Assembly (NCBI RefSeq): GCF_004010195.1
Contig: NC_057749.1
Coordinates: 18,580,926-18,617,858 of the forward strand
DNA from: Chiloscyllium plagiosum
Taxonomy: Eukaryota
Length of the DNA: 36,933 nt
Direction: 5' to 3'
How positions within the stretch are numbered: the stretch's first letter is position 1; each line of letters begins with the position of its first letter. The notes under the pieces were generated by a model. It did no database searches. It had not been told where the DNA came from and worked only from the letters and a program-made list of their open reading frames with translations. The translations under genes were made by a program, and so were the position numbers. Below are positions 971 through 34,561 of this stretch, one piece after another.

Positions 971-1192
971 GAGAAAGTGAGGACTGCAGATGCTGGAGAT
1001 CAGAGCTGAAAATGTGTTGCTGGAAAAGCGCAGCAGGTCAGGCAGCATCCAAGGAACAGGAGAATCGACGTTTCGGGCACAAGCCCTGAAGAAGGATTCC
1101 TGAGGAAGGGCTTGTGCCCGAAATGTTGATTCTCCTGTTCCTTGGATGCTGCCTGACCTGCTGCGCTTTTCCAGCAACACATTTTCAACATT
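971..1192. mobile_element. Palindromic insertion of two inverted Penelope-like terminal repeats (pLTRs) with a 12-bp TSD
   Basis: 80-bp arms at 1007-1086 and 1108-1187 (2 mismatches). Arm sequence matches the PLE tail at 2333-2420. GCCATAGGGCTG flanks at 959-970 and 1193-1204. Confidence 0.9.
1100..1128 (+). ncRNA. Minimal hammerhead ribozyme motif, slightly decayed
   Basis: CTGAGGA-A-GGGC-ttgt-GCCC-GAAA-TGTT: CUGANGA core, 4-bp stem II and GAAA. Stem III shows CpG-type decay relative to GAAACGTC. Confidence 0.6.
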
Positions 1193-1959
1193 GCCATAGG
1201 GCTGTCATGACAGGCATGGGTGAGGTGGGAGACCTGGCCATCTCTACAATGGAAACCTGAGGGCTCCGTATGCAGTTCTTCATCCAATGGGTATCTGCTA
1301 GCACAGACCTTTGTGAGGAAGGGGCACGAAGAGTAAGGTCAAAGTCCCTTGTCCACTTGAGTAGTCTGACTGAACATTTGATTATGCTGAAGCCCCTGGA
1401 CCAATATCCAATACACCCCTTGTTTACTGTGCTGGGATCCTCTGAGTGATGGATATCTCCTGGGACATCAGTGGGAACTACTACCCATAAGCCTCTGAAA
1501 CATGGCTGCTTGCTTGAAGCACATGCAGTATGCTTGTTGTGCATACAGTTGGCACATGGTACAGGTGTGAGAAATGTCAGTGATATGCCAAACAGCAACA
1601 TATCCACTTCCTAGTCTCCCCACAGTCCCACTTTATTCTTTATGAAGAAATGTCATACATAGTCATGGACCATCACTTCCCCACAGCTGAGATTAGCAAA
1701 TGGCTGGCTACATGAGGGTGTGGGTTTTGTTAGCAGCAGCCCTACCTGTACGTGGAACTACATGTTCATTTCCCACATGCCACACCCCTTCAACATCCTC
1801 TCTGTGTACAGACCTTTATTCAAATATATCATCAAGAGTCAGATTGACTTAAATAAAACTATATTCTTGTACTTACAATGCATAATGATGCAAGTGGATA
1901 AAAATAACCAAGTTGTGTGAAAGGATGCTTTAGTGCCCTGTTACAATCGAAAGCAATCA

Positions 1960-2432
1960 TTCACTCCCCCTCCCACTCTGCCGAGGACATGCAGGTCCTG
2001 GGCCTCCTCCATTGCCACTCCCTCACCACCCGACGCCTGGAGGAAGAACGCCTCATCTTCCGCCTTGGAACCCTTCAATCCCATGGCATCAACGTGGACT
2101 TCACTAGTTTCCTCATTTCCCCTCCTCTCACTTTACCCTAGTTCTAATCTTCAGCTCAGCACCGTCGGCATGACCTGTCCCACCTGTCCATTTTCCTTCC
2201 CACCTATCTGCTCCACTCTCCTTTCCAACCTATCACATTCATGCCCACCTCCATCTACCTACTGCACTCTCAGCCACCTTCCCCCCCAGCCCCACTCCCC
2301 TCCCATTTATCTCTCCACTCATTCCTGGTGAAGGGCTTTCGCACGAAACCTCGATTGTCCTGCTCCTCGGATGCTGCCTGACCTGCTGTGCTTTTCCAGC
2401 ACCACTCTAATCTTGACTCTAATCTCCAGCAT
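1960..2432 (+). mobile_element. Penelope-like element, 3' part (endonuclease C-terminus, 3' UTR, pLTR)
   Basis: Peptide SPSHSAEDMQVLGLLHC...RRLEEERLIFRLGTLQSHGINVDF is typical of a PLE C-terminus. Pyrimidine-rich UTR follows; degenerate HHR CTGGTGAAGGGC..GCACGAAAC at 2325-2349. Confidence 0.85.
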
Positions 2433-2559
2433 CTGCATTACCCATTTTCGCCACAAGTTCAATTGCTGGGGGAAGACAATGAAGTGATGACATTTTGTGA
2501 ATGAAGTTGCATGCCCGACACTGTTGCTGATTTCCACCACCTGTGAAGGCGGCTTTCAT

Positions 2560-3005
2560 GACATAGCCCTGAGATTGTTGTGGACTCCCTGCCACTGCCA
2601 ACCCTGGAGAAAAGCATTTCTCTCCTGCTATCCTGACGACACCTTTAATCACCTTAAGCAACTCAATGAGTGTGTGTTCTGAAGAAGAGCTACCACACTT
2701 GAAACATTAACTCTGTTTTCTCCCCACAGCTGCTGCTGGACCTGCTAAATTTCTCCAGCGACTTCTGTTTTTGGTTCAATGAGATCGCTCCTTCACCGTA
2801 TAAAAGTAAAATAAATCATCTATGCAACCTGTTCTCATAAATTAACCCTGTTAGCCCTAGGATTATTCTGGCGAATCTGATCCTTTCAAGTCTAATATAT
2901 CCTTCCTGAGGCATGGCGCCCAGACTCAAGAGCATCATCCCACATACAGTCTAATAACAGCCTTGCTCAACTGCAGCACAACGACTCTCCCTTTTGTATT
3001 CCAGC
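2560..3005 (-). mobile_element. Degraded CR1 LINE 3' fragment, interrupted by a PLE pLTR
   Basis: Antisense CR1 RT C-terminal sequence resembling other CR1 copies here (e.g. ATATCCTTCCTGAGG, CCCTGGAGAAAAGCATTTCTCTCC). Confidence 0.6.
2671..2775 (+). mobile_element. Solo PLE terminal repeat (second family) with HHR remnant and 8-bp TSD
   Basis: GTT-CTGAAGA-AGAG...CTT-GAAACATT-AAC at 2676-2711. TCAATGAG direct repeats at 2663-2670 and 2776-2783. Similar to tails at 17966-18060 and 22600-22700. Confidence 0.7.
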
Positions 3006-3276
3006 AATCAGAAAATATCTTAGAAGTAAAGGGGCTTTGATTTAATTTATCCCCACAAATGCAACCATGCCCCTCCAAAACACTGACAGTGCTAAGCAAG
3101 AGGGCAATTATTTCAACATGAAACAGGAGAACCGGGCAGTGGGCACACACACAGAACGCAAGCATTGTCCTCAGTCTTGAAAACCCAAATATGGCTGTAA
3201 GTTATTAGTTCCGATGGCACCTGCTCCTGATCTGCATTGCAGCAATTCCATTCTCTAGAGCACATGGGCTGGGCGT

Positions 3277-3295
3277 GGGGGGGGGGGGGGGGGGG
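3277..3295. repeat. Poly-G homopolymer (19 G)
   Basis: Directly visible. Confidence 0.95.
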
Positions 3296-4322
3296 TGGAG
3301 TTATTACAGGCATCTTTCCTGCTTGGAAAAATTCAAGCAGACAAGAATACATTTCCAGGGCGAGTTTCTGAGCTACAGACTCGCCTTGGCAGCTTAGATA
3401 AAAATCAATTATCACGTCATAAAAAAAAGGGGCACCTGGCAGTCATTGGCAGTGAATGACCAAGCACAGCAGCTGCTCTTAATGTTGAGCTCACAAAGCA
3501 GCCTGGCAGCACATTCTAATTACATGCTGCCTTGCCTCTCAGAGACTGTCAATTACTGGCCCTCTGCGTAGGCCCAACCCATTGTGAATTCACTGGAAAG
3601 GTTTTGATGTCAACTGCATAAATGCAGTGTTTTACATTCGCTATGCCGGATCTGATCTCTTACAGCTCACTTCACTGCATTAGCGATGAGGCGGTTTCAC
3701 ATTAGCACGCAATTAGTAGTTGGCCCATTACCATTGCTGCTTCCCTATGGCTCCGACTGCAATCACAAAGGAACCTTTCCTTCCCCAGCCCCCAACCTTC
3801 TGAAACCAAAACGTCCTTTGTAGAATAAAATCCACACATAAAAATGAGATGTATGCAAATCCTTGACACCGTGCAAGCAAATCTTCCTCAAGATGTGATT
3901 TGTTTTGGATTCCATTAGCAGTCAAACATCTATGCTGGCTCTGTGCCAGTCTGGGTCTACGCACCTTTGCGTTGTCATGCCAACCAAGACATACATGGTT
4001 CGCCTGTACTTACATCTCAGATAAAAGACTAGCATAATTAAAAGGACAAATGTAATATCTTTCCCATGACATATTTTCCACTGAAACATATTTCTTCTGA
4101 AATGTCTGTCAACTATTTTGCAGCCCTGTGAAGCAGCAGCCTGGAGATTATGCAGCAATGTGTTAAGCTGCCTAAATGGAAAATCATCTCAGTAACCCTG
4201 CACTCAATTTAAAAGGATCTTACAACCTCTGCTAAAAATACATCTTGTGCTGTCTTTCCAATACAGCTGGTGCACTCAAGTCAAGTCCATCTGCATCTGA
4301 GAGAGTAGAAGCTAAGCTTATA

Positions 4323-4445
4323 GTCTACTATGGCCACAGTTGCCTGAAAATGCCCAATCTCATCTGATCTCAAAGCTAAGCAAAACCTGACTTGATTAGT
4401 ACGTGGATGGAAGACCGCCTGAAAATATCAGGTGCAGTCAGCTTT
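4323..4445 (+). pseudogene. Degenerate full-length 5S rRNA-derived sequence
   Basis: Colinear with vertebrate 5S rRNA: GTCTAC..GGCCA, ATCTCATCTGATCTC, box A AGCTAAGCA, TTAGTAC, box C TGGATGGAAGACCGCCTG, and terminal GCTTT, with many substitutions. Confidence 0.9.
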
Positions 4446-4556
4446 GTGGTGCAGTAGTAGCGTTCCTACCTCCAAACCAGGAGGTCTGGGTTCAAGTCTC
4501 ACCTGTTCCAGAGGTGCGTAATAATACCTCTGAACAAGTGGATTAGAAGATACCTA
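4446..4556 (+). mobile_element. tRNA-like SINE segment fused directly to the 3' end of the 5S copy
   Basis: A-box-like TGGTGCAGTAG from 4447, B box GGGTTCAAGTCTC at 4488-4500, then hairpin TGTTCCAGAGGT/ACCTCTGAACA at 4504-4536. Confidence 0.7.
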
Positions 4557-4952
4557 CAATCTGCTTAAATGAGAGAAAGGTTGCATTAGCTAAACCTCAA
4601 ATACAATGTAAGCTCATTTCTACCATGCTTATGCTGTACAAAAGCTCTTTTATATTCCAACCCGATAATGACTGCAAAATCACACATAATACTAGTGATG
4701 CAGATATTAAGACTGCATAATATGCACTTGTTCATCCAGTTGTTTTGCCCCTAATGGCTTTAGTGAATTGGACAAGTCACAGCATTGAGGCCAACAACAC
4801 ACAGGTCTAACTGGTTTGGAAGCTGCAGCTTTAATACAGCAGTGTGCTATACTAAAGGGTGCAAATAGCACAACTGTAATGTTTTTGTCACTCAGTACTG
4901 AGCAGAGAGATTACTGAATAATAGCGCAAATATTCTGCTTTAAGAAAAACCG

Positions 4953-5368
4953 AATTTGCATTTATATAGCACCTTTAATGCTCTCAGGACATTTCAAAGC
5001 ATTTTGCAGAAAACAAAGTATTATTTAAAGTATTGCTGCTGTTGTATTGTAGGAAATTTGGCCATCGATTTCCACACAACAAGCTCTCATAGCCATGCAA
5101 ATCCTTCTTGAAGGATAAATACTGGTCAAAGCAAAATGGAGTACACTCCTGCTCTTTACTCAAGGAAGGCCTTAGGACATTTTGCACTGGCTTGTGCAGA
5201 TAGACAAAATCTAATGCTTAGGTTAATATCTCATTTGAAAGGCCAACTCCACAAATCCAGAATTATCAGTGTTACACTAGGATTGTTAGCTTGGATCAGG
5301 TGTTCAATTCTCTGGAATGGGACTTGAAACCCAAAACATTATGACTCAGAGGCAGGAGTGAGGTAGCA
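4953..5368 (-). mobile_element. Old DeuSINE-type (SacSINE1-like) tRNA SINE, near full length
   Basis: Antisense B box (GGGACTTGAAACCC, ~5319-5333), Deu-like core (TTAATATCTCATTTGAAAG, CTCCTGCTCTTT) and tail TTGCATTTATATAGCACCTTT. Recognised from a recalled consensus. Confidence 0.7.
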
Positions 5369-6759: not shown

Positions 6760-6866
6760 ATTATTGCCCGTGAAAGCTTGCTATATACAAATTGGATGCC
6801 ATCCCTTCATTGTCTGTGAAGCGCTTTGACGTATTCTGAAAGGCACTATATAAATGCAAACTGTTC
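6760..6866 (+). mobile_element. DeuSINE-type 3' tail fragment
   Basis: TTCATTGTCTGTGAAGCGCTTTG...GAAAGGCACTATATAAATGCAA resembles the reverse complement of the 4953-5000 tail. Confidence 0.55.
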
Positions 6867-7580: not shown

Positions 7581-7602
7581 AACCTTCAAAGTACAGTGGC
7601 TT

Positions 7603-7917
7603 GGCAGTGCGTGGCTTGGTGGTTAGCACTGCTGACTCACAGTGCTAGAGACCAGAGTTCGATTCCCGCCTTGGGTGACTGTCTGTGTGGAGTTTGCACA
7701 TTCTCCCAGCGTCTGTGTGGGTTTCCTCGGGGTGCACTGGTTTCCTCCCACAATCCATAGATGTGCAGGTTAGGTGAATTGGCCATGCTAAATTGCCCAT
7801 AGTCAGTTCCCACCCAACAGGGGAATGGGTTTGCGTGGGTTCCTCTTCAGACGGTCGGTGTGGACTTGTTGGGCTGAAGGGCCTGTTTCCATACTGTAGG
7901 GAATCTAATCCAATCCA
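7603..7917 (+). mobile_element. HE1-type V-SINE
   Basis: tRNA head (TGGTTAGCACTGCTGACTCACAG..GAGTTCGATTCCC), V-domain (GTGTGGAGTTTGCACATTCTCCC..GGTTTCCTCCCAC), CR1-like tail and AATCT/AATCC repeats. Confidence 0.85.
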
Positions 7918-7967
7918 AAGTGTTCACTGTTGGATTATTTTACATATTTCCTTGAGCAGGCTCAACA

Positions 7968-8411
7968 GGCAGCACGGTGGCTCAGTAGTTAGTACGGTGG
8001 CTCAGTAGTTAGTACGGTTGCCTCATAACACCAGGGACCCTTGGGCAACGTTTGTATGGAATTTACACATTTGTCCCGTGTCTGCGTGGGTTTCCTATGG
8101 GTGCTCCAATTTCCTCTCTCAGACCAATAATGTGAAGGATAGGTGAATTGGTGTGCAGAGGAACCTCGATTATCCGAATTTCAGATTTACTGGCAAGATC
8201 GCAAGGTCCCGATGCTTCGCTAAATTGTGTTACCCAGCATTTGATTATCCAAACTTTCGATTATCCAACAAAATACTCCTCGCCTGCGTCATTCGGATAA
8301 TCGAGCTTCCTCTGTATTAGCCATGGGAAATGCAGGGTTGCTCTTTGGAGGGGCAGTGTAAACGTGATGGGCCGAATGGCTTACTTCTACACTGTAGGGA
8401 TTCTATGATTC
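7968..8411 (+). mobile_element. Second HE1-type V-SINE, with duplicated A box, split by a MITE
   Basis: GGCAGCACGGTGGCTCAG head, V-domain remnant and tail GGGCCGAATGGC..CACTGTAGGGATTCTATGATTC. 20-bp tandem duplication at 7974-8013. Confidence 0.8.
8156..8314. mobile_element. 159-bp MITE (Tc1/mariner-pogo/Tigger-like)
   Basis: 24-bp TIRs CAGAGGAACCTCGATTATCCGAAT (8156-8179) and 8291-8314 with 1 mismatch. TA on the right flank, TG on the left. Confidence 0.85.
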
Positions 8412-12502: not shown

Positions 12503-12606
12503 CTTGCAGCATAGGAGAAAGTGAGGATTGCAGATGCTGAAGATCAGAGTTGAAAAGTGTGGGGCTGGAAAAACACAGCAGGTCAGGCAGCATCCGAGAA
12601 GCGGGA

Positions 12607-12642
12607 GAATCAACGTTTCAGTGTAAGCCCTTCATCAGGAAT
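12607..12642 (-). ncRNA. Hammerhead ribozyme motif in the antisense pLTR (stem II decayed)
   Basis: Reverse complement ATTC-CTGATGA-A-GGGC-TTAC-ACT-GAAACGTT-GATTC. Confidence 0.55.
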
Positions 12643-12731
12643 GGGGAGGGATGGGGCAAGGTAACCGGGAACATTTCAGGAAACATGTCTGGGACACATG
12701 CATCAAACAATCTCACCGCTCTGTGGCCGAT

Positions 12732-14320
12732 CATTTTATTCTTACATAAGGAGCAAGCGGGTAACTAGAGAAAGGATTGGTCCACTAAAGGATAACAAAG
12801 GAAGGCTGTGTGTCAAATCTGAGAGAATGGGTGTGATTCTGAATGATTACTTTGCATCAGTGTTCATGGAGGAGAGGAACATGATGAATGTTGAGATTAG
12901 AGATAGAAGTTTGATTAGTCTGGATCATGTTGACGTAAGTAGGGAAGATGTGTCAGGTAGGCTAGAGGTTATTAAGGTGGACAAATCCCCAGGACCAGAT
13001 GGGATCTATCCCAGATTGCTGAGGAAGGCGAGAGAGAAAATAGCTTGGGCCCTGACAGATATATTTGTGGCATCCTTAAACACAGGTGAGGTGACGGAGG
13101 ATTGGAGGGTTGCTCATGTTGTCCCCCTGTACAAGAAGGGTAGTAGAGACATTCCAGGTAACTACAGACCAGTGAGCCTGACGTCGATGGTGGGAAAGTT
13201 GCTGTAGAAGATACTGAGGAATAAAATCTATTTATATATGGAAAAGAATGGACTTATCAGTGATAGGCAACATGGTTTTGTGCAGGGGAGATCGTGCCTT
13301 ACCAACTTAATAGAGTTCTTCGAGGAAATGACCAAATTGATAGATGAAAGAAGGGCTGTTGATGTCATATACATGGACTTTAGTGAGGCATTTGATAAGG
13401 TTAACCATGGTAGACTAATGGAGAAAGTGAAGTCACATGGTGTGCAGGGTGTTCTCGCTAGGTGGATAAAGAACTGGTTGAGCAACAGGAGACAGAGAGT
13501 AGGAGTTGAAGGGAGTTCCTTGAAATGGAGAAAGGTGACCAGTGGTGTTCCACAGGGATCAGTGTTGGGGCCACTGTTGCTTNNNNNNNNNNNNNNNNNN
13601 NNNNNNNNNNNNNNNNNNNNNNNNNNNNNNNNNNNNNNNNNNNNNNNNNNNNNNNNNNNNNNNNNNNNNNNNNNNNNNNNNNNNNNNNNNNNNNNNNNNN
13701 NNNNNNNNNNNNNNNNNNNNNNNNNNNNNNNNNNNNNNNNNNNNNNNNNNNNNNNNNNNNNNNNNNNNNNNNNNNNNNNNNNNNNNNNNNNNNNNNNNNN
13801 NNNNNNNNNNNNNNNNNNNNNNNNNNNNNNNNNNNNNNNNNNNNNNNNNNNNNNNNNNNNNNNNNNNNNNNNNNNNNNNNNNNNNNNNNNNNNNNNNNNN
13901 NNNNNNNNNNNNNNNNNNNNNNNNNNNNNNNNNNNNNNNNNNNNNNNNNNNNNNNNNNNNNNNNNNNNNNNNNNNNNNNNNNNNNNNNNNNNNNNNNNNN
14001 NNNNNNNNNNNNNNNNNNNNNNNNNNNNNNNNNNNNNNNNNCTTTCAAGGTGAGAGGTGGAAAGTTTAAGGGGGATACACATGGTAAGTACTTCACACAG
14101 AGGGTGATGGGCGTTTGGAACGTGTTGCCAGCAGAGGTGGTAGAGACAGGCATGGTAGATTCATTTAAGATGCATCTGGATAAATGCATGAGTAGGTGGG
14201 GAGTACAGCAATACAGATGCTTATGAATTGACCGAAGGTTTAGACAGTACATTTGGATCGGCTCAGGTTTGGAGAGCCGAAGGGCCTGTTCCTGGGCTGT
14301 AAATTTTCTTTGTTCTTTGT
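12732..14320 (+). mobile_element. 5'-truncated CR1 LINE (ORF2 reverse transcriptase pseudogene), spans an assembly gap
   Basis: KSPGPDGIYPRLL, GNYRPVSLTS, QHGFVQGRSCLTNL, YMDFSEAFDKV, SGVPQGSVLGPLL in one frame with a single TAG at 13205-13207. 3' UTR ends TGTTCTTTG at ~14319. Confidence 0.95.
13583..14041. other. Assembly gap (459 N)
   Basis: Run of N. Confidence 1.
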
Positions 14321-15742
14321 AACTCCCCCTCCCACTCTGCCAAGGACATGCAAGTCCTGGGCCTCCTCCACCGCCAAATCCAAGCCACCCAACATCCGGA
14401 GGAAGAATGCCTCATCTTCCTTGGGAGCCTCCAACCACACAGCATCAACGTCAATTTCACCAGTTTCCTCATCTTCCCTCCCTCCACCTTATCCCAGACA
14501 CAATCCTCCAACCCAGCAACGCCCTCTTGAATTGTCCTACCTGTCAATCTTCCTTCCCACCTATCCGCTCCGACCCATCACCCACCTTCATCTACCTATC
14601 GCCTTCACACTACCTCCCCCCAAGCCCCACACACACCCTCCGTTTATCTCTCAGTCCCCTTACCCCCATCGCCACATTCCTGAAGAACTTATGCCCAAAA
14701 CATAGATTCTCCAGCTCTTCTGATGCTGCCTGACCTGCTGCGCTTTTCCAGCAACACACTTTGACTTTACACTTACAGACCCACAACATGAAAATGCACC
14801 AATTATCTCAACTCTGCTTCCTGTCCATCAATCAATCCATCATCCACACTAATATGTTATCCCCAACTCTTAACAGTCCTCATCTTGTGTATTAACTTTT
14901 TGGATAGCATCTACCCTTTTAAGGAATTCCACAGAATACACTAATAATGAAATGATTAAAATTTAGTGATGCTCAAGAAGTACTATTTGGAGATGTGAAG
15001 GGCTAGGGAAGATTACACAGAAAGGAGGCCACAAGACCGTGAAGGGGCTTATAAAAAAAAATGGAAATTTTAAAATGAGGTGGTTGGAAAGAAAGATATC
15101 GATTTCCAAAACTAAAAAATGGAACAGGAATGAAAAAAAAACATCTGCTCCACTCTTATAGTAAGCGCTTAAACAAAATAATCAAAAATACAAAAGAAAA
15201 GCTGCATCAGAAGTGCATTAACATTTGTAAAGCAGTCCTTTTAGAATCTTAGACACATTTAGATTTTAAAAACTATATCATGAACGAAATGTCAGCACCG
15301 ACTTTGTTCCCTAACCAGTCACTTACATATCTTGTGACGTCCTTTAATTGGAAATTTCACAAGCAGTTCCCGAGGATTGGTGCAAATGAACACAAATGGA
15401 GAGCCACATTCTTGATCTGTAAACTGAAAACAAAAATTAAACATTCAGTACTCTTTATCCATGGACAGGTGGGAACTCTCTTTCCTCCAGTTCTTCGTAC
15501 ATAAACAGCTCCAGTCACACAGGTACACCTCAGAGAAACTCATGAGCTAATGTTACACCCTCTACCTCCTCCACCAACTCAAATTAAATACTACAATTTC
15601 ATTCTTCAGTTCAGTGTTGGCTGCAATCTACCATTCCCTGCCCCAGATTCTAGTCAAAGAGGCACACCCAAAGGATTCCAGGAGATTTATGTAGCCAAAG
15701 AGAAGCATCAATGGTACAGGTTTTACTCCTGTTTACTTTCAG

Positions 15743-17105: not shown

Positions 17106-17284
17106 ACTTTAAAAAGACTACGACCAGAAGACACAGCCCTCTATTGTTTTCAATAGAGCTGCTTTCTTTGCTGCTGAAAATGTTGCCTTTTTGATTCTTT
17201 CATGCATGCTGGATATTTCCTGTGTTCAAGATCATAAGATATCGGAGCAGAATTAGATAATTTGGCCCACTGATTCTGCTCCAT

Positions 17285-18075
17285 CTCTTCCAGACACATA
17301 TTCCCCTCCCTCCCTTGCCAGCCTTCTGCAGGAACTGTTCCTTTCAGGACACACTGGTCCACTCTTCTGTCACTCCCAACAGACCACCCACCCCACCCCC
17401 GACCCCAAAGCCCCACACCACTTTCTCCTGCAACACCTGTCTGCTTACTTCCTCCCTCCTCAGTATCCAAGGGCCCAACACATCTTCCAGGTGAAGCAGC
17501 ACTATACTTGCACTTTACTCAATCTAGTCTACTGCATTTACTGCTCACAACATGGTCTCCTGTACATTGGGGTAACAAAGCGTAGACTGGGTGACCACTT
17601 TGCAGAACACCTATGTCCCGCCCGCAAAAGAGACTGTGACCTTCCAGTTGCCTGCCACGTCAACACAGCTGCTTGTTCCCTGGCCAACCTCTGTGTCTCA
17701 GGATTGTTGCAATGCTCCAGTGATGCTCAGTGCAAGCTGGAAGAGCAGCACCTCATCTTCCACTTGGGAACTCTACAGCCTCCTGGACATGACATCGATC
17801 ACTTTAGTTTGAACTCTCCCATGACTTTACCCCAATCTCCCCACACTGTGCCTTGTTATCACAGTCTGCTATGACACACAGCCCACTAACAGTTCCCATT
17901 AACAGCTATTCATCCTCCTAGCCTGATCGTAATCCACTACTTTGACTGTCCAACTGTCCTTTGCTCTGAGGAAGGGTCACTGGACCCAAAACATTAATTC
18001 TGATTTCTCTCCACAGATGCTGCCAGACCTGTTGAGCTTTCCAGCAATTTACAGCATCCACAGTCCTTTCCATTT
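17285..18075 (+). mobile_element. Degraded Penelope-like element (GIY-YIG endonuclease plus pLTR)
   Basis: NLVYCIYCSQHGLLYIGVTKRRLGDHFAEHL..KLEEQHLIFHLGTLQPPG. HHR remnant CTGAGGA-A-GGGTC-actg-GACCC-AAAAC at 17966-17992. Confidence 0.85.
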
Positions 18076-18755: not shown

Positions 18756-18774
18756 TCAAAAGGCAAATAATTTA

Positions 18775-20710: not shown

Positions 20711-21719
20711 TTCCATTCTCCTTCAGCTAGACATCGAGTCCCATTATGGTCGAATTTTCAGAACATGCCAGCCGTCTAGCCAGATGAGCTGGATACATTT
20801 ATCTCTACGAAAATCATGAAACAAAGTACAAGTTTAAAAATAAATGAAAGGCTTTTCTTGAAGCCATCAGCTTTGTAAACCCACCAATAATGGTTTGGTT
20901 TGACCAGGAGCATCAGGAAGACAAATGCCAGCAACCAGGATGCTGTCAATGTGAAGAGACGACAGTTTGGCAACGTGACACTGAAGGGTGTCAACGGAAT
21001 TATGAGATGAATTGTAATAACAAATTTCCTTCACCGAGTTGATAGATTGGAAACAGCCAAGGTATATAATCAGAGCTTGCAAGATGATAAAAGAAACAGA
21101 GATTAAGATGAAGCAGAAAAGGGTGTGTATGACAGATGTCAGGTGGATAAAACAAGAAACAACCAAGCTGAACACAGAAGTTTCAAACGGGAAGTGAAAA
21201 AAACAGAAGCAAATCAAGAAGAGACTGGCAGTTAACAAACATGGGGGTCAAACAATCTTTTAAAGTATATATGTCGTGAAAGGGTTGTAAAAAGATAATT
21301 TAAACTGACAAGAGACTTTAAGTAAAGATGTGACAGCACAGCGAAGGGATGAAATGAACATTTTACATCTCTCTTTACCAAGGAGGAAGCTGCCCAAGAC
21401 ACAGTAAAATACGGGGTTATTAAAATATTGGCGGGTATAACAATGAATAAAAATGGATAGTAGCTAGCTGTATGTAAAGTTGATAAGTCACCAAAATCAG
21501 ATGAGATGCATCAAGTATATTGAGTGAAGTGCAAGTGGCAATTGCCAAGCTGTGTGGCATAGAGTCATAGAGATGGGGGTGGTGCCGGAGGAACTGGTGA
21601 ACTGTAGATGTCAAACCCTTTTTTAAAATAAGGGTTTAAGGTTCAATTCAACAATGAGAAAATTTCAGTTAAGTCCAAAAAAAAATTTACAGTCACTTGG
21701 ACAAATGTAGATAAACATG

Positions 21720-21830
21720 GATTCCGACCTGAAACATCGACTCCCCTTCTCCTCTGATGCTGGTTAACCTGCTGTGCTTATTCCAGCTCCATTCTTTATC
21801 CTCCAACCTCCCCCTCCCCACCCCAACCCA
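21720..21830 (+). mobile_element. PLE pLTR fragment
   Basis: GAAACATCGACTC..CTCCTCTGATGCTGG..ACCTGCTGTGCTTATTCCAGC resembles the 2345-2400 tail. Confidence 0.6.
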
Positions 21831-22062: not shown

Positions 22063-22740
22063 AAACAAAAACAGAAATCGCTGGAAAAAATAAGCAAGTT
22101 TGACAGCATCAATAGATAGAAAACAGAGTTAACATTGAATCCAGTGACCCTTCAGAACTAGAAGCAGCTAGATACAGGGGATGATGCGGGGAATACAGCT
22201 TTGTGGAAGAACAATATCACATCTTCCACTTCAGTAACTTACAGCCTTGAGGGCTCAATATGGAGTTTAACAATTTCAGAGCATGAACACCTCCTTCCTT
22301 GTCCATTACCTACTCCGACAACTTTAAAGTCCAGTCATGAAATGGATTGCTGTCAGCACAGCCACCTCATTTTCAACTATTAGTAGTCCCCATTATCACT
22401 TATCTAGCTTCTCTTCTTCCCGGACTTACTATCAACAATCCTTTTGTCTGGCTATCTTGATTTTTCCCTGTCTCTTGGTCTTTCTCCCTCTCCCTCTGGG
22501 TTCAGTCACTGCCTACTTGTTCACTCGATTTCCACCCCACCCCCTTTCCCCAACTCCCCACCATCAGGATAAATACCAAATTTTCATAGCTGCTTCCAAT
22601 CTAAAGGAGGATCACTGGACTCAAAGCATTAACGGTGGTTTCTCTCCACAGTTGGTGCCGGACCTCCTGAATTTCTAAAGTAATCTCTAGTTTGTTTGAA
22701 ACAGACCGCCAGGATCCACAGTTATTCGTTTTATTTTAGT
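22063..22740 (+). mobile_element. Old PLE 3' fragment with 5' inverted pLTR
   Basis: Antisense pLTR at ~22063-22160; sense C-terminal/UTR remnant from ~22200; decayed HHR/pLTR at 22600-22740. Confidence 0.6.
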
Positions 22741-23310
22741 GAATACTGGATGTATTTGAAGTCTGGAGGATGGTATGCAATGGATTCCCAAAGATCAGCA
22801 TGAGGAACATTATTCTTCCCGATAAACATTAATGACCCAGAATTGGGTGTACTAGATACAATTTGCAGACAACATAAAACTTGAAAGAGGAGAACAATTT
22901 AAGATGCTCAGTAAAAGAAGCAATGGCAACATGTGGGGAGGAAATAAAAAGTGTAATGCAGTGAACGGTGAGGATGTAGAATGCACTCTCTGAAAAGGAG
23001 GTTGGTGGGAGATTCAACCACAGCTTTCAAAAGTAAAATGGGATCATTACCTGAAGATAAAAAAGTTGCAGGGTTACAGGGTAGGGGGAGGGAAGTAGGA
23101 CTAGCTGAGTTATTCTTTCAGACAGCCAGTACAGTGAAGTCTGGCTGAATGACCTCATTCTACACCTATAACCATTTTATGATTCCATAAATCCCAAATT
23201 TAACACTGTGTTCTCTCTTCAAATAGATTCTTTATGACAGCTATTGAGAGCTACGTTTATATTTCCAGGAGAATCTGGAATGTCTTTAAAAATGAAGTTA
23301 AATGCTTTGT

Positions 23311-23656
23311 GGGCAGCACGGTGGCTCAGTGGTTAGCACTGCTGCCTCACAGTCCTAGGGACTCAGATCTGACTCCAGCCTTAGGTGACTGTTTGGATTT
23401 TGCAAATTCTCCCCACATCTGCGAAGATTTCCTCCAGTGCTCCTGTTTCCTCCCACAGTTCCAAACATATGCAATTTAGGTGAACAGTCGTGCTAAATTG
23501 CCCATAGATTCCAGGGATGTGTAGGTTAAGTGGATTAGCCATGGGATATACAGGGTTACAGGATACGTAAGGGGGATTGGGTCCGAGTGGGATGTTTCTC
23601 GGAGGGTCGGTGTGGACTCAATGGGTCAAGTGGCTGTTTCCACACTGTAGGGATTC
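23311..23656 (+). mobile_element. HE1-type V-SINE, near full length
   Basis: GGGCAGCACGGTGGCTCAGTGGTTAGCACTGCTGCCTCACAG head, V-domain, tail TTTCCACACTGTAGGGATTC. Confidence 0.85.
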
Positions 23657-26704: not shown

Positions 26705-26828
26705 CTGATGAAGGAGCGTCCCTCCGAAAGCTAGTGTGCTTCCAATTAAACCTGTTGGGCCATAACCTGGTGTTGTGTGATTTTTAACTTTGTACACCCC
26801 AGTCCAACACCGGCATCTCCAAATCATG
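26705..26828 (+). mobile_element. Solo PLE pLTR (third family) beginning at its HHR core
   Basis: CTGATGA-A-GGAG-cgtcc-CTCC-GAAAG-CTA. Downstream sequence is near-identical to the arms at 30510-30647. Confidence 0.75.
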
Positions 26829-26829
26829 A

Positions 26830-29445
26830 CTGAAGAGGGAAATCAGGAAGGCAAAAAGGGGAGATGAGATAGCTCTGGCAAATAGGGTTAAGGAGAATCC
26901 AAAGGATTTTTACAAATACATTAAGGTCAAAAGGGTAACTTGGGAGCAAATAGAGCCCCTCAAAGATCAGCAAGGCAACCTTCGTGTAGAGCCGCAAGAG
27001 ATGGGGGAGATACTAAACGAGTATTTTGCATCAGTGTTTACTGAGAAGGATATGGAAGATATAGCATATGGGGAAATATGGTGACATCTTGAAAAATGGC
27101 CATATTACAGAGGAGGAAGTGCTGATGTCTTAAAATACATAAAGATGGATAAATCCTCAGGACCTGATCAGGTGTACCCTAGAATTCTGTGGGAAGCTCG
27201 GGAAGTGATTGCTAGGCCCCTTGCGGAGATATTTGTATCATCGATAGTCACAGTGAGGTGCCAGAAGACTGGAGGTTGGCTAACGTGGTGCCACGTGGTA
27301 AGGAAAAGCCAGAGAACTATAGACCAGGGAGCCTGACGTCAGTGGTGGGCAAGTTGTTGGAGGGAATCCTGAGGGACAGGATGTCCATGTATTTGGAAAG
27401 GCAAGGACTGATTAGGGATAGTCAACATGGCTTTATGCATGGAAAATGCATGGTGCATGGTGACGAGCGGTGTCCCGCAGGGTTCGGTGCTGGGGCCACA
27501 GCTGTTCGCATTATATATTAATGATTTGGATGAGGGAACCGGGGGCATTCTAGCGAAGTTAGGTGGACAGGCAGGTAGTACTGAGGAAGTGGGGAGGCTA
27601 CAGAAGGATCTTGACAGGTTGGGAGAGTGGTCCAGGAAATGGCTGATGGAATTTAACGTGAGCAAGTGCGAGGTCTTGCACTTTGGCAAAAAGAATAAAA
27701 GCATAGACTACTTTCTAAATGGTGAGAAAATTAATAAAGCCAAAGCACAAAGGGATCTGGGAGTGCGAGTCAACGTGTCCAGCGGCGATTCACACGGATG
27801 ATCCCTGGAATGACAGGTCTAACATATGAGGAATGGCTGAGGATACTGGGATTGTATTCTTTGGAGTTTAGAAGATTAAGGGGAGACTTAATAGAGACGT
27901 ACAAAATAATACATGGTTTGGAAAAGGTGGATGCTAGGAAATTGTTTCCGTTAGACGAGGAGACTAGGACCCGTGGACACAGCCTTAGAATTAGAGGGGG
28001 TCATTTCAGAACAGAAATGCGGAGACATTTCTTCAGCCAGAGAGTGGTGGGCCTGTGGAATTCATTGCCACGGAGTGCAGTGGAAGCCGGGACGCTAAAT
28101 GTCTTCAAGGCCGAGATTGATAGATTCTTGTTGTCTAGAGGAATTAAGGGCTACGGGGAGAACGCTGGTAAGTGGAGCTGAAATGCGCATCAGCCATGAT
28201 TGAATGGCGGAGTGGACTCGATGGGCCGAATGGCCTCACTTCCACTCCTATGTCTTATGGTCTAAAATCATGCCTCACAAACTCATTCAGGTTTTCCGAA
28301 GAAGTAACAAAAAGGATTGATGAGGGCAGAGTGGTGGACGTGATCTATATGGACTTCAGTAAGGTGCTTGACAAGGTTCCCCCTCAGAGACTAGTTAGCA
28401 AGGTTAGATCACAGAATACAGGGAGAACCAGCCATTTACATACAGAACTGACTCAAAGATAGAAGACAGAGGGTGGTGGCGGAGAGTTGCTTCTCAGACT
28501 GGAGGCTTGTGACCAGTGGAGTGCCACAAGGATTGGTGCTGGGTCCACTACTTTTCGTCATTTATATAAATGATTTGGGTATAGTTAGTAAGTTTGCAGA
28601 TGACACAAAAATTGGAGGTGCAATAGACAGCAAAGAAGGTTACCTCAGACTACAACTAGGTCTTGATCAGATGGGCTAATGGGCTGAGAAGTGGCAGGTG
28701 GAGTTGAATTTTGATAAAAGTGAGGTGCTGCATTTTGGGAAGGCAAATCTTAGCAGGACTTATACACTTAATGGTAAGGTCCTAGGGAGTGTTGCTGAAC
28801 AAAGAGATCTTGCAGATTCATAGCTCCTTGAAAGTAGAATCGCAGGTAAATAGGGTAGTGAAGAAGGCGTTTATTGGTCAGAGCATTGAGAACAGGAGTT
28901 GGGAGGTCATGTTGCAGCTGTACAGGACACTGGTTAGGCCACTGTTAGAATATTGCGTGCCATTTTGGTCTCCTTCCAATTGGAAGGATGTTGTAAAACC
29001 TGAAAGGATTCAGAAAAGATTTACAAGGATGTGGCCAGGGTTGGAGGATTTGAGCTACAGGGAGAGGACGAATATGCTGGGGCTGTTTTCCCTGGAGCGT
29101 CGGAGGCTGAGGGGTGACCTCATAGAGGTTTATAAAATCATGAGGGGCATGAATAGGATAAATAGGGGTGGAGGAGTCCAGAAGTAGAGAAGTAGAAGTA
29201 GAGTAAAAGAGACCTAAGGGGCAACTGTTTCACGCAGAGGGCGGTGTGTATGGAATGAGCTGCAAGAGCAAGTGATGGAGGGTGGTCCAATTACAACATT
29301 TAAAAGGCATCTGAATGGGTATATAAATAGGAAGGGTTTAGAGGGATATGGGCCAAGTGTTGGCAAATGGGAGTAGATGATCTGGTTGGCATGGATGAGT
29401 TGGACAGAAGGGTCTGTTTCCGTGTTGTACATCTCTATGACTCTA
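26830..29445 (+). mobile_element. 5'-truncated CR1 LINE (RT pseudogene) hosting a nested CR1
   Basis: DKSSGPDQVYPRIL, ENYRPGSLTS, QHGF | SCLTN, YMDFSK, SGVPQGLVLGPLL, KFADDTK, RRRLRGDLIEVYKI; tail CTCTATGACTCTA. Confidence 0.95.
27458..28263 (+). mobile_element. Nested younger CR1 (same family as 24248-25295) with internal deletions
   Basis: VTSGVPQGSVLGPQLF..WLMEFNVSKCEVLHFG..EFRRLRGDLIETYKI; tail TCTTATGGTCT. It interrupts the host between QHGFMHGK and SCLTN. Confidence 0.9.
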
Positions 29446-29929: not shown

Positions 29930-30200
29930 TTCAAGCTGAACAACTTTCCCTTGACATTCAATGACATGACCATCATCAAATCATCCACCATTCAAAATCT
30001 TAAGGGTTACATCACCAATCATCAGAAACTTTACTGGAACAGCCACATAAATGTTGTAGTTATTAGAGCACATCAGAGGCTGGGTTTTAGATGGCAATGG
30101 TTCACTCCTGATTTCTCAAAACTTTCTATCACCTACAAGGAAGATGCCAGTCAGAAATGTAATGAAATACTTTCTATTTGCTTGGATAGGTATAGTTTAT
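29930..30200 (+). mobile_element. Degraded RT C-terminal fragment of the second LINE family
   Basis: PLTFNDMTI..QKLYWNSHINVVVIRAHQRLG. Confidence 0.6.
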
Positions 30201-30509
30201 GGGAGCAACTAAAGATTTTGATTAAGTCCCAATTTTAACAGTCAGAGAGACAGATGCTCACTTGCAAATCTTTACCCTGCACATTCCCATTCTACCCAAA
30301 TAAGAGAAACAAAGTGCATGTTTTAACATTTTTTTCTTAACTAAGAGACCGGAGACTTTCATACTTTTCCAGCGTTGCGACTTAGAAACAATAACCATGA
30401 GAACTTTTTTTTTACAAAAACAACACAGAAGTGATGAGTATTTTAGAGGGAGATCAGACATCAGAGATCCTTCTAAAATTCAACCTTTTTAAAACAAACT
30501 GTTCATTTA

Positions 30510-30649
30510 GGATTTGGAGGAGCTGGTGTTGGACTGGGGTGTACAAAGTTAAAAATCACACAACACCAGGTTATAGTCCAACAGATTTCAGAGTGTGCTT
30601 CTAATTAAACCTGTTGGACTATAACCTGGTGTTGTGTGATTTTTAACAT
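30510..30649. mobile_element. Palindromic pLTR-only PLE insertion with 10-bp TSD
   Basis: Perfect 37-bp inverted arms at 30548-30584 and 30611-30647. TGTTCATTTA at 30500-30509 and 30650-30659. Confidence 0.85.
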
Positions 30650-30669
30650 TGTTCATTTATGCAATGGGA

Positions 30670-30925
30670 GTGTTGCTAGCATTTGTTACCCACCCCCAAG
30701 AACCAGTGCAGTCCAGGTGGTGTAAAAACACCCACAGCACTGTAAGGCAGGGAGTTCCAGGATTTTGACAGACCAGGACTGAAGGGAGCAGCAATACAGT
30801 TTCAAGGAAATGTAATGTGCCAGTTGAAAGGGCGTTACAATGGGGGTGTTGCCATGTGCCTACCACGGTTGTCCTTCTTTGTAGATGCTGGAAATCACAG
30901 GTTTGGAACAAGTGTTGATTGAGTC
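30670..30925 (-). mobile_element. 3' fragment of the second LINE family
   Basis: GGGAGTTCCAGGATTTTGAC..ACTGAAGGGAGC; reverse-complement similarity to 31930-32205. Confidence 0.6.
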
Positions 30926-30928
30926 TCA

Positions 30929-31165
30929 TTGATTAGATTAGATTACATTACAGTGTGGAAACAGGCCCTTCGGCCCAACAAGTCCACACCGCCCCGCCGA
31001 AGCGCAACCCACCCATACCCCTACATTTACCCCTTACCTAACACTACGGGCAATTTAGCATGGCCAATTCACCTGACCTGCACATCTTTGGACTGTGGGA
31101 GGAAACCGGCCGGGTCTCTGGCGCTGTGAGGCAGCAGTGCTAACCACTGTGCCACCGTGCCGCCC
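30929..31165 (-). mobile_element. Young HE1-type V-SINE with an internal deletion
   Basis: CpG-rich intact head (rc GGGCGGCACGGTGGCACAGTGGTTAGCACTGC) and (GATTA)n tail. B box and most of the V-domain are missing at ~31110. Confidence 0.85.
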
Positions 31166-31929
31166 ACAAGTGAGTTGCTGCAGCAGTGCATTCTGTATGT
31201 GGATGAGATGTTATAAGGCACTATTTGCCTCAATAGGTGAGTTGAAAAGCTAAACAGCTAAGTTACCCCAGTTCCATGCTCAAAATGCATCCCCGAAATC
31301 AACATCATAAATGCAGATGACTGTTTTATGGAGTAGGGGTGGGGATGAGAGCAGCTTGCCATGTGCATTTTTGCTGTCACATTTCCTGAACAATAACAGT
31401 GACCAATGTTTCCTCTAAGCAGAGCACACGATCAGCACGAGCATACTGGTTGAGGTATTGACTTCCAATTCTAGAAGTTGCTGCTATGCATGGGCTTTGG
31501 AAGCCCACACAGCCTGTAAGAAAATTACAGGGAACGCTGGCAGGAATTACACTGCAATAGGAGTTCATTGGCTGCAAAGCACTTTGAAACATCATGAAAA
31601 CCATGATGTTATTGGAAGACTTACTTCCTTCCACTTTATTTTATTTGCCAGTCATCACAAAGCCATAATGTTGTCAAGGTATGAACAAATTTAGTATCTA
31701 CAGAGTTGCAAATGTTGCTGAAGAGTGTACGATCAGCAAACATCCTTTTCACAGGGGGAGGGGTGTGCCATTGATGGAACAAACAAAGATGGTTCTTCTT
31801 CAGAAACCATCATGAGAAATTCCAAAGGCCGCAACAGTGCCTTAATTTAACATTTCGTCCAAATACAGAATGCACCGTTGCAGCAACACACAGAGTCAAT
31901 CAACAGCATGTTCCAGACTGAGACCTTCA

Positions 31930-32205
31930 GCACCTACAAAAAAGGACAATGGTGGTAGGCATATAGCAACACCCCAATGTGTAAGATCCCTTTCAACATG
32001 CACATTGCATTGCTTTGAAACTATATTGCAGCTTCCTTCAGTGTTGGTGGTTCAAAATCGTGCAGCTCCATCCCTTACAGTACTGTGGGTGTTCTTACAC
32101 CACATGGACTGCAGCGGCTCAAGGATGTAGCTTACTATCACCTTCTCAAGGGCAATTGGGGATGGTTAACAAATGTTCGCAACATTCAAATCGCGTAAAT
32201 AAATA
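31930..32205 (+). mobile_element. 3' end of the second LINE family
   Basis: CACACCACATGGACTGCAGCGGCTCAAG..CACCTTCTCAAGGGCAATTGGGGATGG; translation matches the antisense of 30670-30925. Confidence 0.6.
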
Positions 32206-32379
32206 ATTGTTTTAACATGGTTGTACTTTAAAAAGATCTCTGATGTTAGAACTCCCTCTAAAATACGATCTTTCTTTGTACAAGTTAGGACTCTCGCCAC
32301 TGAAAACCTCTGTCTGATTTCCATTAAGTTCAATATTACTAGGCTCCTTGATGCCACACTTAATTAAATACTGCTTATG

Positions 32380-33300
32380 TTGCTCTCATCTCACCTCTGG
32401 AACTCAACCTTTTTTGTCTATGCTTGGACAAAGCTACAATGAGGTCTGGAGACGAAATACCCTAGTGAAACCGAAAGTGGTTGCAGTTGTTTGCAGGTGC
32501 TGCTTGACAGCAGAGTTTATGACACTTTTCATCATTATGCTGAAGAGTCAGGTTAGACAGGTGGTAAAGTAACTTGCTGGATTGGATTTGTCCTGCTTTC
32601 TAGGATGAAAAATATCTGAGTAATTTTCCACATTGTTGAGTGGCTGTCAATGCTACAGTTGTTATGGAACAGTTTGGCTACAGGCATAGTTAGTTCTGGA
32701 GTACAAGTCTTTAGCACTACAGTTAGGATGATACCCAGTCCATAGCCTCTGCTGTATTCAATGAGTTCTTGATGGCAGCTCTGATGACAGGGACTTCAGA
32801 AGAAGGCACAGATGGATTATCATTCAGATTCTGGTTGAAAATGGCTGCAATCCTCCTCCTTCGCATTCATACGCTTGGTTCCACTAACCTTGTGAATTGG
32901 GGATGTCCATGGAGCCCCCACTTCTTTTCAGTTGTCCACAACCATTCCCCATTGAATTAAAGAATTATGCCAAGTGTCACGATAAGTTATATTCCAGAAT
33001 AAAAATTGACATTCTTGATGAACGCTTGCTTAAAGACGTATTGGCTGCACCATTGAGGAACTGGCTTGAAGGCATTATCCAACTGACAGCAGAATTAATG
33101 CATCACTAAAACAAGTCAAATCAACTCAGGTGAACGATCTATCTCTGCCTCTTCACCAGGTTCCCAGCATCACAGATGCAAGTCTTCTACCAACTTGATT
33201 AACCTTGACTAATGACTCTTTGGATTGATGGTCATTTAGCTGCAAAAGCTATTAGAAGACAGCAGCCCTCAAGCCAGTTTCCCATTGAGGTCATAATTTT
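32380..33300 (-). mobile_element. Highly degraded LINE RT-region remnant
   Basis: Weak resemblance to antisense KAMGPDxI..APELAMPVAKLF motifs (~32650-32750). Confidence 0.35.
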
Positions 33301-33882
33301 CACCTAAACTAACATTTCAATTCATTAATCAACAAGAGGAGATGAGTCAATACTTGGACACAATTCATCACACACACAAATCAGTGACATGCTTCTTGTC
33401 ACCACAATGCAAACTACAGATTTCTTCCACAATAACCACACAGAGACTGGAGTTTCCCTTCTGTCAAAGATATCCTCAATTCCTTAACACAGCCTGACAG
33501 AATTTCACTGTGAGCAAACTAAAGACGTGGAGGGTGGGAGATTGTTAAGAATTCAAGATGCAAAATTTCAAATCAGAAATATGAATAAGTGTGTAATTTT
33601 AAGAAGCAAATGAAGTGTTGTATTTTCAATAAGTCAGATTGTGCTGACCTAAACTTGTCAGATAGAATTTCCAAACTCTCGGCTGTATCAAATCTGAGTT
33701 GGAACAAGCTCTAATTAATTTGGAAGTTCCCTCTATGCCAGACAGGCAGGGTTGCTTTGTTTTGACATTTAACTCAAATCATTCATGGACTCAACCGACA
33801 GAACTGAGCACTGGACAAATCCCATGGTACCATTCAGCTTGAAATGAGGTGTTTAGGTTCTCACTGAAATAGAAAGTTGCAA

Positions 33883-34561
33883 AGTTTGGGAGAAGATTTG
33901 TAGCTCGGGTGCTCGACAACGGAATGAGGACATGCCACAACCCAAAGGACCATCCACACTACCATACATCAAAAACATTTCTGAACTGACAGCCAGACTA
34001 CTGCGACCACGAGGACTCATAACAGCACACAAACCAACAGCCACTCTCAGACAACAACTCACCAGGACGAAGGACCCGATACCCAGCATGAGCAAAACCA
34101 ATGTAGTGTACAAAATCCCATGCAAGGACTACACAAAACACTACATAGGACAAACAGGAAAACAGCTAACGATCCACATCCATGAACACCAACTCGCCAC
34201 GAAACGACATGACCAGCTATCCTTAGTAACCACACACTCAGATGACAAGCAACATGAGGTCGACTGGGACAACACTACTATTATAGGACAAGCCAAACAG
34301 AGAACAGCCAGGGAATTCCTACAGGGATGGCGCTCATCCAGATTCAATCAATAAGCACATCGACCTGGACCCAAGATACCGGCCACTGCAGCAGACAGCT
34401 GGAACTGACAACTGGAAGCGGCAGATTCAAACCACTACAAATGCCGGAGGAAAGATCACAGAAGCGCTTCACAGGAGGCTCCCAAGCACTGAGGATGTCA
34501 CCTAGACAGGGGACGAAACGTCTGCAACACAAATTCACAGCTCGGCGAAGAGAACCACAAC
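33883..34561 (+). mobile_element. Penelope-like element (Poseidon/Penelope-type GIY-YIG endonuclease), 5' truncated, 12-bp TSD
   Basis: TLPYIKNISE..NVVYKIPCKDYTKHYIGQTGKQL..IHEH..DWDNTTII. AGAAAGTTGCAA at 33871-33882 and 34562-34573. Confidence 0.92.
34486..34525 (+). ncRNA. Apparently intact minimal type I hammerhead ribozyme
   Basis: GCA-CTGAGGA-T-GTCACCT-agac-AGGGGAC-GAAAC-GTC-TGC: stem I GCA/TGC, stem II 6 of 7 paired, palindromic ACGT stem III, GUC cleavage triplet. Confidence 0.8.

Follow-up and report, generated by a model that had tools for sequence, protein, structure and literature searches.

Minimal hammerhead ribozymes (min-HHRs) are distinguished by one nucleotide lying between residues 9 and 10.1, a G10.1-C11.1 pair, a palindromic 15.2-16.2, a location in the pseudo-long terminal repeat (pseudo-LTR) of Penelope-like elements (PLEs) and massive numbers, and dimers have been proposed for their action (Cervera and de la Pena 2014, Mol Biol Evol 31:2941, PMC4209133). 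The published anatomy of PLEs comprises 5' truncation, an inverted 5'-truncated partner, an optional tail of 30-40 nt and target-site duplications (Craig et al. 2021; Mob DNA 2024). We analysed a 36,933-nt stretch of the shark Chiloscyllium plagiosum (contig NC_057749.1, positions 18,580,926 to 18,617,858 of the forward strand), which we call the window and within which all positions below are counted. An initial annotation of the window had proposed that four PLE families carry one minimal hammerhead architecture with an extra nucleotide after CUGANGA. We found that these motifs are very probably minimal type I hammerheads of PLE pseudo-LTRs, located near the 3' end of elements of four PLE families (A to D) of this genome. 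The kind of motif is already known; what is new is the lineage, the copy number and the pattern of 5' ends, the last of which offers a modest clue to how PLEs are transcribed and to what the ribozyme is not doing. Our literature search found no paper on Penelope hammerheads of cartilaginous fishes, and a 2026 preprint (Li et al.) sampled one chondrichthyan and tandem retrozymes only.

Hammerhead motifs of four Penelope-like families

In the window, a descriptor asking for CTGANGA, 0 or 1 extra nt, three or more stem II pairs counted from both ends, and then GAAA found five matches, all with a 1-nt insertion: 1100, 2679, 26705, 34489 and 12537. In 300 dinucleotide shuffles the mean was 0.76 matches and one shuffle reached five. 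The match at 12537 is antisense of a family A tail and is probably due to chance. The CTGANGA box alone occurs 47 times where 25 are expected, so the box by itself carries little weight; boxes are present at 1100, 2679, 17966, 26705 and 34489 on the plus strand and at 12632-12638 on the minus strand. Of the motifs that the initial annotation had listed, those at 1100, 2679, 26705 and 34489 have intact cores, while those at 2325, 12638 (minus strand), 14680 and 17966 are real copies but damaged, and there are several remnants besides.

In its commonest form, the family A motif has CUGANGA, an extra A, stem II GGGC/GCCC, then GAAA, with ACGU as helix III. The corresponding forms have CUGANGA, an extra A, GGGUC/GACCC and ACGU in family B; CUGANGA, an extra A, GGAGC/GCUCC and AGCU in family C; and CUGANGA, an extra U, GUCACCU/AGGGGAC with one A/G mismatch and ACGU in family D. 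All four commonest forms have the GAAA box and a four-letter palindrome as helix III. As had been proposed, stem II pairs in every family although its sequence differs, the exception being the mismatch in GTCACCT/AGGGGAC of family D, and one A or U stands unpaired between A9 and G10.1 (A in three families, U in one). All five window matches have an extra nucleotide at this place. A hand count of the first 100 genome matches gave A 92, U 7 and G 1 at this position. The loopless palindromic stem III ascribed to well-preserved copies holds for the commonest forms, which read ACGU or AGCU, but not for the copies at 1100 (AUGU) and 2679 (ACAU). Among the first 100 genome matches there are also further hammerhead families that are absent from the window, for example one of the type CUGAUGA-A-GGGC-UUUU-GCCC and a family D relative with a fully paired 7-bp stem II, GUUACCU/AGGUGAC.

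Covariation across families, which the initial annotation had put forward as a check on the motif, was found in stem II. Pairs were counted in 27 distinct rows from families A, B and D; family C was left out because MAFFT displaced it by one column. Among these rows, which were pre-selected by a descriptor demanding three stem II pairs, 88.8% of stem II cells are paired and both sides change in 4 of the 5 pairs. The 10.1-11.1 pair is GC in 21 rows, GU in 5 and CG in 1, and the first pair of helix I is CG in 13, UA in 8, AU in 2 and UG in 1. The covariation score is 0.348; shuffles give 0.163, with none of 500 as high as the observed value, and sliding the partners against each other gives no more than 0.135. 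A family C copy with GGAGU/ACUCC shows a double change in stem II, both sides of which are at CpG sites. Monomer folds show stem II in families A, B and C; their stability is not significant (z from -0.2 to -1.0). In long family A copies in which N7 is G (for example L004:1497-1510), CUGAGGA can pair with CCUCA just upstream; this modelled 5-bp hairpin would hide the catalytic box in the minimum-energy fold and could form only in transcripts that start further upstream.

The PLE origin of all four families, which the initial annotation had taken as given, is borne out by GIY-YIG and reverse-transcriptase frames upstream of the motifs together with tails, inverted partners and target-site duplications. 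Remnants of GIY-YIG-type frames lie 100-300 nt upstream of the motifs at 2325, 14680, 17966 and 34489, and the motifs are separated from the upstream stop codon by 100-500 nt and from the element end by 37-128 nt. Pfam scores of the frame fragments themselves are below cut-off (GIY-YIG 17.8 bits, RVT_1 15.2 bits); the endonuclease remnants are related across families (A-B E = 2e-11, B-C 2e-9, D-C 9e-5). In a long genomic family C copy (L039), reverse-transcriptase and GIY-YIG frames lie about 500 nt upstream of the motif. Longer relatives of the L039 frame are shark proteins with RVT_1 (PF00078), one of which also has GIY-YIG (PF01541), and relatives of one of the frames studied are annotated in Heptranchias, Scyliorhinus, Mustelus, Rhincodon and Chiloscyllium. 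A search of the reading frames against sequences of solved structures gave no useful match, and a protein atlas look-up of the reading frame returned only an uninformative domain name. A reading frame starting inside the ribozyme, as in the anole element, was rejected by eye, as such frames meet stops within 8-23 codons.

Copies are frequently 5'-truncated and have an inverted 5'-truncated partner; a tail of about 35 nt, where present, is confined to one end. In a hand count of the first 100 family A matches, head-to-head pairs outnumber head-to-tail pairs 5 to 1. The hairpin at 971-1193 is a single insertion, because the same 11 bases are found on both flanks and the tail is on the left arm but not on the right; each head-to-head hairpin likewise represents one insertion. 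At G000:C29:24610224-24610357 (L169), two family D hammerheads follow each other head to tail at a distance of about 70 nt; the upstream copy breaks off 3 nt past its predicted cut site, and the next copy continues from position -31. Such a tandem order is what the dimer model requires, and it was seen in 1 of 20 sampled family D copies.

To count the motifs we used whole-genome pattern matches in the 3.56-Gb assembly, each compared with a reversed control pattern. The insertion-type pattern CTGANGANGN{7,19}CGAAA has 241,253 matches and its control 4,802, which agrees with the very large genomic hammerhead load that had been predicted from the window. The pattern without the extra nucleotide has 5,460 matches and its control 4,346, and among the matches listed part of this small excess consists of copies whose extra nucleotide is G. 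The family A core 24-mer has 50,878 exact matches and its control none. The generic insertion pattern occurs about once per 15 kb, and since the window has three matches in 36.5 kb, it is typical of the genome.

Rfam 15 has no hammerhead match in the window, either at the gathering threshold or at E up to 10, and none at E up to 10 in 6.8 kb that hold intact copies of all four families. The Rfam matches that did occur were to plant microRNA families, whose hairpins the inverted repeats mimic. The suggestion that standard descriptors miss the insertion variant is thus right for the Rfam models; however, the variant was not overlooked, since the extra nucleotide is already a listed min-HHR hallmark and a published relaxed descriptor retrieved it (PMC4209133). 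For annotation, it matters that none of these motifs is detected by Rfam models and that descriptors have to leave room for a nucleotide after A9. We built two covariance models, neither of which is usable as a general detector. R1, made from families A and B together with their flanks, is specific to its families; R2 (the core of A, B and D) finds copies of those three families, but the family C copy at 26705 escapes it even when E is raised to 5.

The damage in window copies falls at C11.1-G12 and C15.2-G16.2, which are CpGs. At the C11.1-G12 site of family B, a hand count of the first 100 of 2,191 matches gave CG 22, CA 38, TG 37 and TA 3. The near-equal CA and TG classes indicate methyl-CpG decay on both strands after insertion, and it follows that the source elements had G12. 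The AAAA boxes at 17966 and 14680 and the AUGU and ACAU variants of helix III are thus fossils of CpG decay, and the two essential CpGs survive only in master copies.

Five-prime ends of copies and the role of the ribozyme

To locate where copies begin, we took copies in genome order, each anchored by an exact word directly behind the predicted cut site, and examined the 80-110 nt of sequence upstream of that word. In family A (first 60 of 20,876 matches), 37 boundaries lie at -6 to +5 of C3 (35 by script and 2 by eye), 11 copies are long (at least 36 nt upstream), 7 begin at +8 to +15, 3 at -15 to -9 and 2 near the cut site (+25 and +27/28); three rows are limited by Ns. In family C (first 40 of 19,389 matches), 25 boundaries lie at -9 to +4 of C3, 7 copies are long (one by eye), 4 begin at +8 to +18, 2 near the cut site (about +24 and +29) and 2 upstream (-27 and -13). 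The proportion of boundaries close to C3 is thus about 60% in both families. In family B, about 18 of 30 copies begin 0-4 nt before C3, as judged by eye in a similarity-ranked rather than genome-order sample. Family D (first 20 of 28 non-window matches) has 14 long copies, none that begins at -9 to +5 or near the cut site, 1 at +7 and 5 upstream (-46, -45, -31, -31 and -16). Most copies of families A to C begin 0-8 nt before C3 and so have little of the 5' strand of helix I. An impression that every family C copy starts at C3 was an artefact, as the window copy used as query is itself truncated at C3. Long copies of families A, B and C have a TATA-like word that starts 34-38 nt before C3, and family D has TATAAA at -53. 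Many of the boundaries are junctions with an inverted partner, which fits two complementary DNAs primed from both target strands, as the anole study saw in vitro.

Judged from the DNA copies, there is just under an even chance that transcription starts just upstream of the ribozyme, with a TATA-like box upstream of the start. A start inside the pseudo-LTR is known for Penelope of Drosophila virilis, although its promoter is TATA-less and further from the ribozyme than in the shark families (Schostak et al. 2008). We put forward, somewhat more tentatively, a fuller proposal in which the TATA-set start would lie 0-8 nt before C3 and the main templates would be short start-to-tail RNAs that are not cut by the ribozyme, copied from both strands of the target into promoter-less singles and head-to-head hairpins; this might account for what is maybe the largest hammerhead load counted (about 2.4 x 10^5). 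The ribozyme would then stand at the very 5' end of pseudo-LTR-driven transcripts, and the copied RNA in three families would usually begin a few nucleotides from C3, about 30 nt downstream of the TATA-like box. The short RNAs would give promoter-less copies of about 95-135 nt, often as head-to-head pairs from one insertion event. As to the ribozyme itself, the literature leads one to expect that the RNA would cut after H17 only with helix III from a second copy (as a dimer) or with the help of the element's protein, and that the cut would process PLE transcripts. If the proposal is true, ribozyme cutting would not define the 5' end of the template, and a 5'-terminal copy would lack most of helix I.

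Several observations weigh against these readings of the motif and of its place in the transcript. Boundaries at the cut site are not enriched (2 of 60 in family A and 2 of 40 in family C). The evidence for the transcription start comes from DNA copies: single-cell poly(A) reads (one run) cover both strands at a depth that tracks DNA copy number and show no molecule starts or ends, and so they are uninformative on expression, start and cleavage. The truncated family D copies (-46, -45, -31, -31, -16 and +7) are off the position predicted from their TATA box, and since families A, B and C share a similar distance from TATA to C3, a distance set by TATA and the edge of the ribozyme are inseparable in these families. 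The pre-selection of rows for three stem II pairs inflates the paired percentages, and helix I is weak, with 65.7% of cells paired over four pairs and clear covariation only in the first. Metazoan min-HHRs show low activity in vitro (Cervera and de la Pena 2014, PMC4209133). For the anole PLE, the one PLE that has been reconstituted, catalytic mutants of the ribozyme were without effect on insertion in vitro, and RNA ends at the cut site were not observed (PMC11167929). The substrate in that study was unprocessed RNA, with which the lack of enrichment of cut-site starts in families A and C agrees. Family D argues, with small numbers, against a simple effect in which reverse transcriptase stops at the ribozyme.

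The same observations on in vitro activity, on the anole element and on cut-site starts would be expected if the motif were kept in PLE masters for a job other than cleavage, as a protein-binding or folding site or as a promoter-proximal sequence, its hammerhead look being ancestral baggage with little catalysis in vivo. PLE clades that lack a hammerhead proliferate too (Craig et al. 2021), and the motif occupies approximately the first 35 nt of the inferred transcript, as a promoter-proximal role would have it. We nonetheless regard this explanation as unlikely. All core nucleotides, including the fast-decaying CpGs C11.1-G12 and 15.2-16.2, are kept in the four families although their flanks have ceased to be alignable; covariation of stem II is seen between families A, B and D; and in the anole element single mutants of C3 and G8 abolish cleavage and the double mutant restores part of it (PMC11167929). 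Core retention, covariation and this rescue are together hard to explain without selection for catalysis. Still less plausible is mere chance, with CTGANGA and GAAA happening to be near each other in a repeat: although the match at 12537 is of this kind and the box alone is frequent, we consider it practically negligible, since it is refuted by the shuffles (mean 0.76 as compared to 5), by stem II covariation and by the genome counts against their control (241,253 and 4,802), and the motif has a constant place downstream of PLE frames.

The short copies could also form a separate non-autonomous family, SINE-like (short interspersed element-like) or retrozyme-like, with an internal promoter of its own and a tail in common with the PLEs. 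In the samples of families A and C, about 60% of copies are short units that begin close to C3, exact-word counts reach tens of thousands, and the 2026 preprint (Li et al.) argues that animal retrozymes derive from PLE pseudo-LTRs. However, in the A and C samples short and long copies are identical up to the boundary and no stem II or loop variants specific to short copies are visible, the TATA-like box stays behind upstream of the boundary and is missing from short copies, there are no hammerhead tandem arrays in the window, and pairs are mostly head to head rather than head to tail, by 5 to 1 among the first 100 family A matches. We therefore consider a separate family improbable and continue to favour minimal type I hammerheads of PLE pseudo-LTRs.

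For the question of what the hammerhead does in PLEs, this genome is a very large natural sample, with hundreds of thousands of copies from several families and of several ages. In this sample the ends of copies accumulate at the ribozyme's 5' edge and not at the cut site, and the two essential CpGs are kept only in masters. Taken together, the pile-up and the CpG retention suggest that the motif is under selection in source elements and that cutting plays no part in delimiting the RNA that is copied.

Copies and neighbouring sequences in the window

Family A is represented in the window at 1100, 2325, 12638 (minus strand), 14680 and 21719. A head-to-head hairpin insertion of this family spans 971-1193 (960..1204 with flanks), with an 11-bp target-site duplication at 960-970 and 1194-1204, arms at 1007-1087 and 1107-1187 that are 98% complementary, and the optional tail at about 971-1012, on the left arm only. 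It holds the minimal hammerhead at 1100..1127 on the plus strand with both boxes intact (CUGAGGA, extra A, GGGC/GCCC, loop UUGU, GAAA), helix III AUGU (a CpG-decayed ACGU) and U as H17, and scores 52.2 bits with covariance model R2. In the left arm there is a partial motif on the minus strand (1063..1091, 26.4 bits), which the initial annotation did not list; stem II, GAAA and ACGU are kept and the CUGANGA box is replaced at the junction. An older family A 3' end at 1908..2405 (plus strand) has a GIY-YIG C-terminal remnant at 1908-2138, followed by the 3' untranslated region, the hammerhead and the 3' terminus; the hammerhead at 2325-2352 is decayed, with CUGGUGA (CTGGTGA in the DNA), stem GGGC/GCAC and helix III ACCU. 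On the minus strand, a family A copy with a tail lies at 12514..12650 with its hammerhead at approximately 12612-12638 (35.3 bits); CUGAUGA is intact, stem II is broken by a 1-nt deletion and GAAACGUU follows. Another older family A 3' end, at 14303..14762 on the plus strand (22.3 bits), has a GIY-YIG remnant at 14303-14527 and a decayed hammerhead at 14680-14704, in which stem II is lost and AAAA replaces GAAA (G12 to A). A family A-like fragment at 21719..21779 (plus strand, 17.1 bits) starts within stem II and has no CUGANGA box; its partial copy of the motif (21719-21750) is likewise an addition to the earlier list.

Family B is found at 2679, 17966, 22140 (minus strand) and 22604. The hammerhead at 2679..2708 (plus strand, 41.1 bits) has intact boxes, a weak 3-bp stem II (GAG/CUU, including a G-U pair) and a CpG-decayed helix III, ACAU. 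The family B 3' end at 17257..18060 (plus strand) has a GIY-YIG frame at 17257-17871 (E = 0.004, below the Pfam cut-off) and a hammerhead at 17966-17995 with CUGAGGA, an extra A and GGGUC/GACCC; G12 is changed to A (AAAA) and helix III reads ACAU, both changes being at CpG sites. Decayed remnants had been suspected near 14680, 22140 (minus strand) and 22604, and all three were recovered, the first two by covariance models (14676-14708 and 22127-22159 on the minus strand) and the third by repeat alignment. The second belongs to a family B remnant at 22063..22159 on the minus strand (11.8 bits, E = 0.42). The third, at 22600..22670 on the plus strand, has lost CUGANGA and is found by neither covariance model; it is 79% identical to 17965-18035.

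Families C and D have fewer members in the window, C at 26705 and 30592 and D at 34489. A short family C copy, a 128-nt piece at 26705..26832 on the plus strand, begins exactly at C3; its hammerhead (26705-26733) has CUGAUGA, an extra A, GGAG/CUCC, GAAA, AGCU and A as H17. A family C head-to-head hairpin at 30499..30655, also absent from the earlier list, has arms that end short of the ribozyme core. Its right arm, from 30592, starts at most 1 nt from the predicted cleavage site; we treat this start as chance because such starts are rare in the genome-order samples (2/40 and 2/60). The family D 3' end at 33857..34562 (plus strand; the element ends at 34562) has a GIY-YIG-like frame at 33857-34351 and a hammerhead at 34489-34522 (34.5 bits) with CUGAGGA, an extra U, GUCACCU/AGGGGAC (one A/G mismatch), GAAA, ACGU and C as H17.

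The surroundings are repeat-rich vertebrate DNA with CR1-like long interspersed element (LINE) frames, SINEs derived from transfer RNA and one gap of 459 Ns. At 26705-26840 the family C copy (plus strand) directly abuts a 5'-truncated CR1-like LINE (plus strand) from about 26830, and at 12514-12700 the family A copy (minus strand) and a 5'-truncated CR1-like LINE (plus strand) are head to head at about 12650-12665. These junctions could be chimeric retrocopies made by template switching or neighbours by chance. A 5S rRNA-like sequence at 4326-4443 (plus strand) scores 33.2 bits as compared to the Rfam gathering score of 38 and has many broken pairs; it is probably a 5S pseudogene or a 5S-derived repeat. 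At 36564-36847 there is a perfect 142-bp tandem duplication (2.0 copies, 100% identical) inside an open frame, 36525-36933, that reaches the end of the window. We take this frame to be a candidate for the N-terminal part of a PLE protein, which it presumably resembles. Copies of a transfer RNA-derived SINE are present in both orientations at 7611-8040, 23304-23395 and 31113-31169, one of them with a 20-bp internal tandem duplication (7959-8018).

Comparison with known systems

The motifs share their catalytic boxes and the order of their helices with the Rfam type I hammerhead, whose model we take to be Hammerhead_1. The tertiary contacts of that hammerhead are absent, because helix III has no loop and helix I no closing loop. 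Between A9 and G10.1, viroid hammerheads can likewise have a single additional unpaired nucleotide (De la Pena and Flores 2001, cited in PMC4209133); unlike the shark motifs, they are of type III, with full helices and loop-loop contacts, and belong to circular RNA pathogens. Animal non-LTR retrozymes (Cervera and de la Pena 2020; Li et al. 2026 preprint) resemble the shark copies as hammerhead-bearing, non-coding, PLE-related repeats. Retrozymes, however, are tandem arrays that give circular RNAs, whereas the shark copies are dispersed singles or inverted pairs, and none of the five tandem-repeat rows in the window holds a hammerhead.

Closer is the anole Poseidon element PAc (Mob DNA 2024, PMC11167929), which likewise has a pseudo-LTR hammerhead and an optional tail of 30-40 nt. 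In PAc both target strands are extended, which would explain head-to-head copies. The reading frame of PAc starts at stem II, whereas no long frame starts in the shark motif.

The closest match is with the min-HHRs (PMC4209133). In the motif itself, the core boxes, a stem II with G10.1-C11.1, the unpaired nucleotide between A9 and G10.1 and the loop-less palindromic helix III are alike, and a short open helix I may be shared as well; alike are also the place in the pseudo-LTR, the many dispersed singles, the pairs on opposite strands and the several consensus families per genome. Stem II differs in length, being 4-5 bp in three shark families and 7 in one as compared to 7-8 bp in Schistosoma (PMC4209133). 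The lineage differs as well, as the main text of that paper names no shark, and so does the load, which is about 241,000 motifs here as compared to about 9,000 in Xenopus tropicalis and about 4,000 in the coelacanth (PMC4209133).

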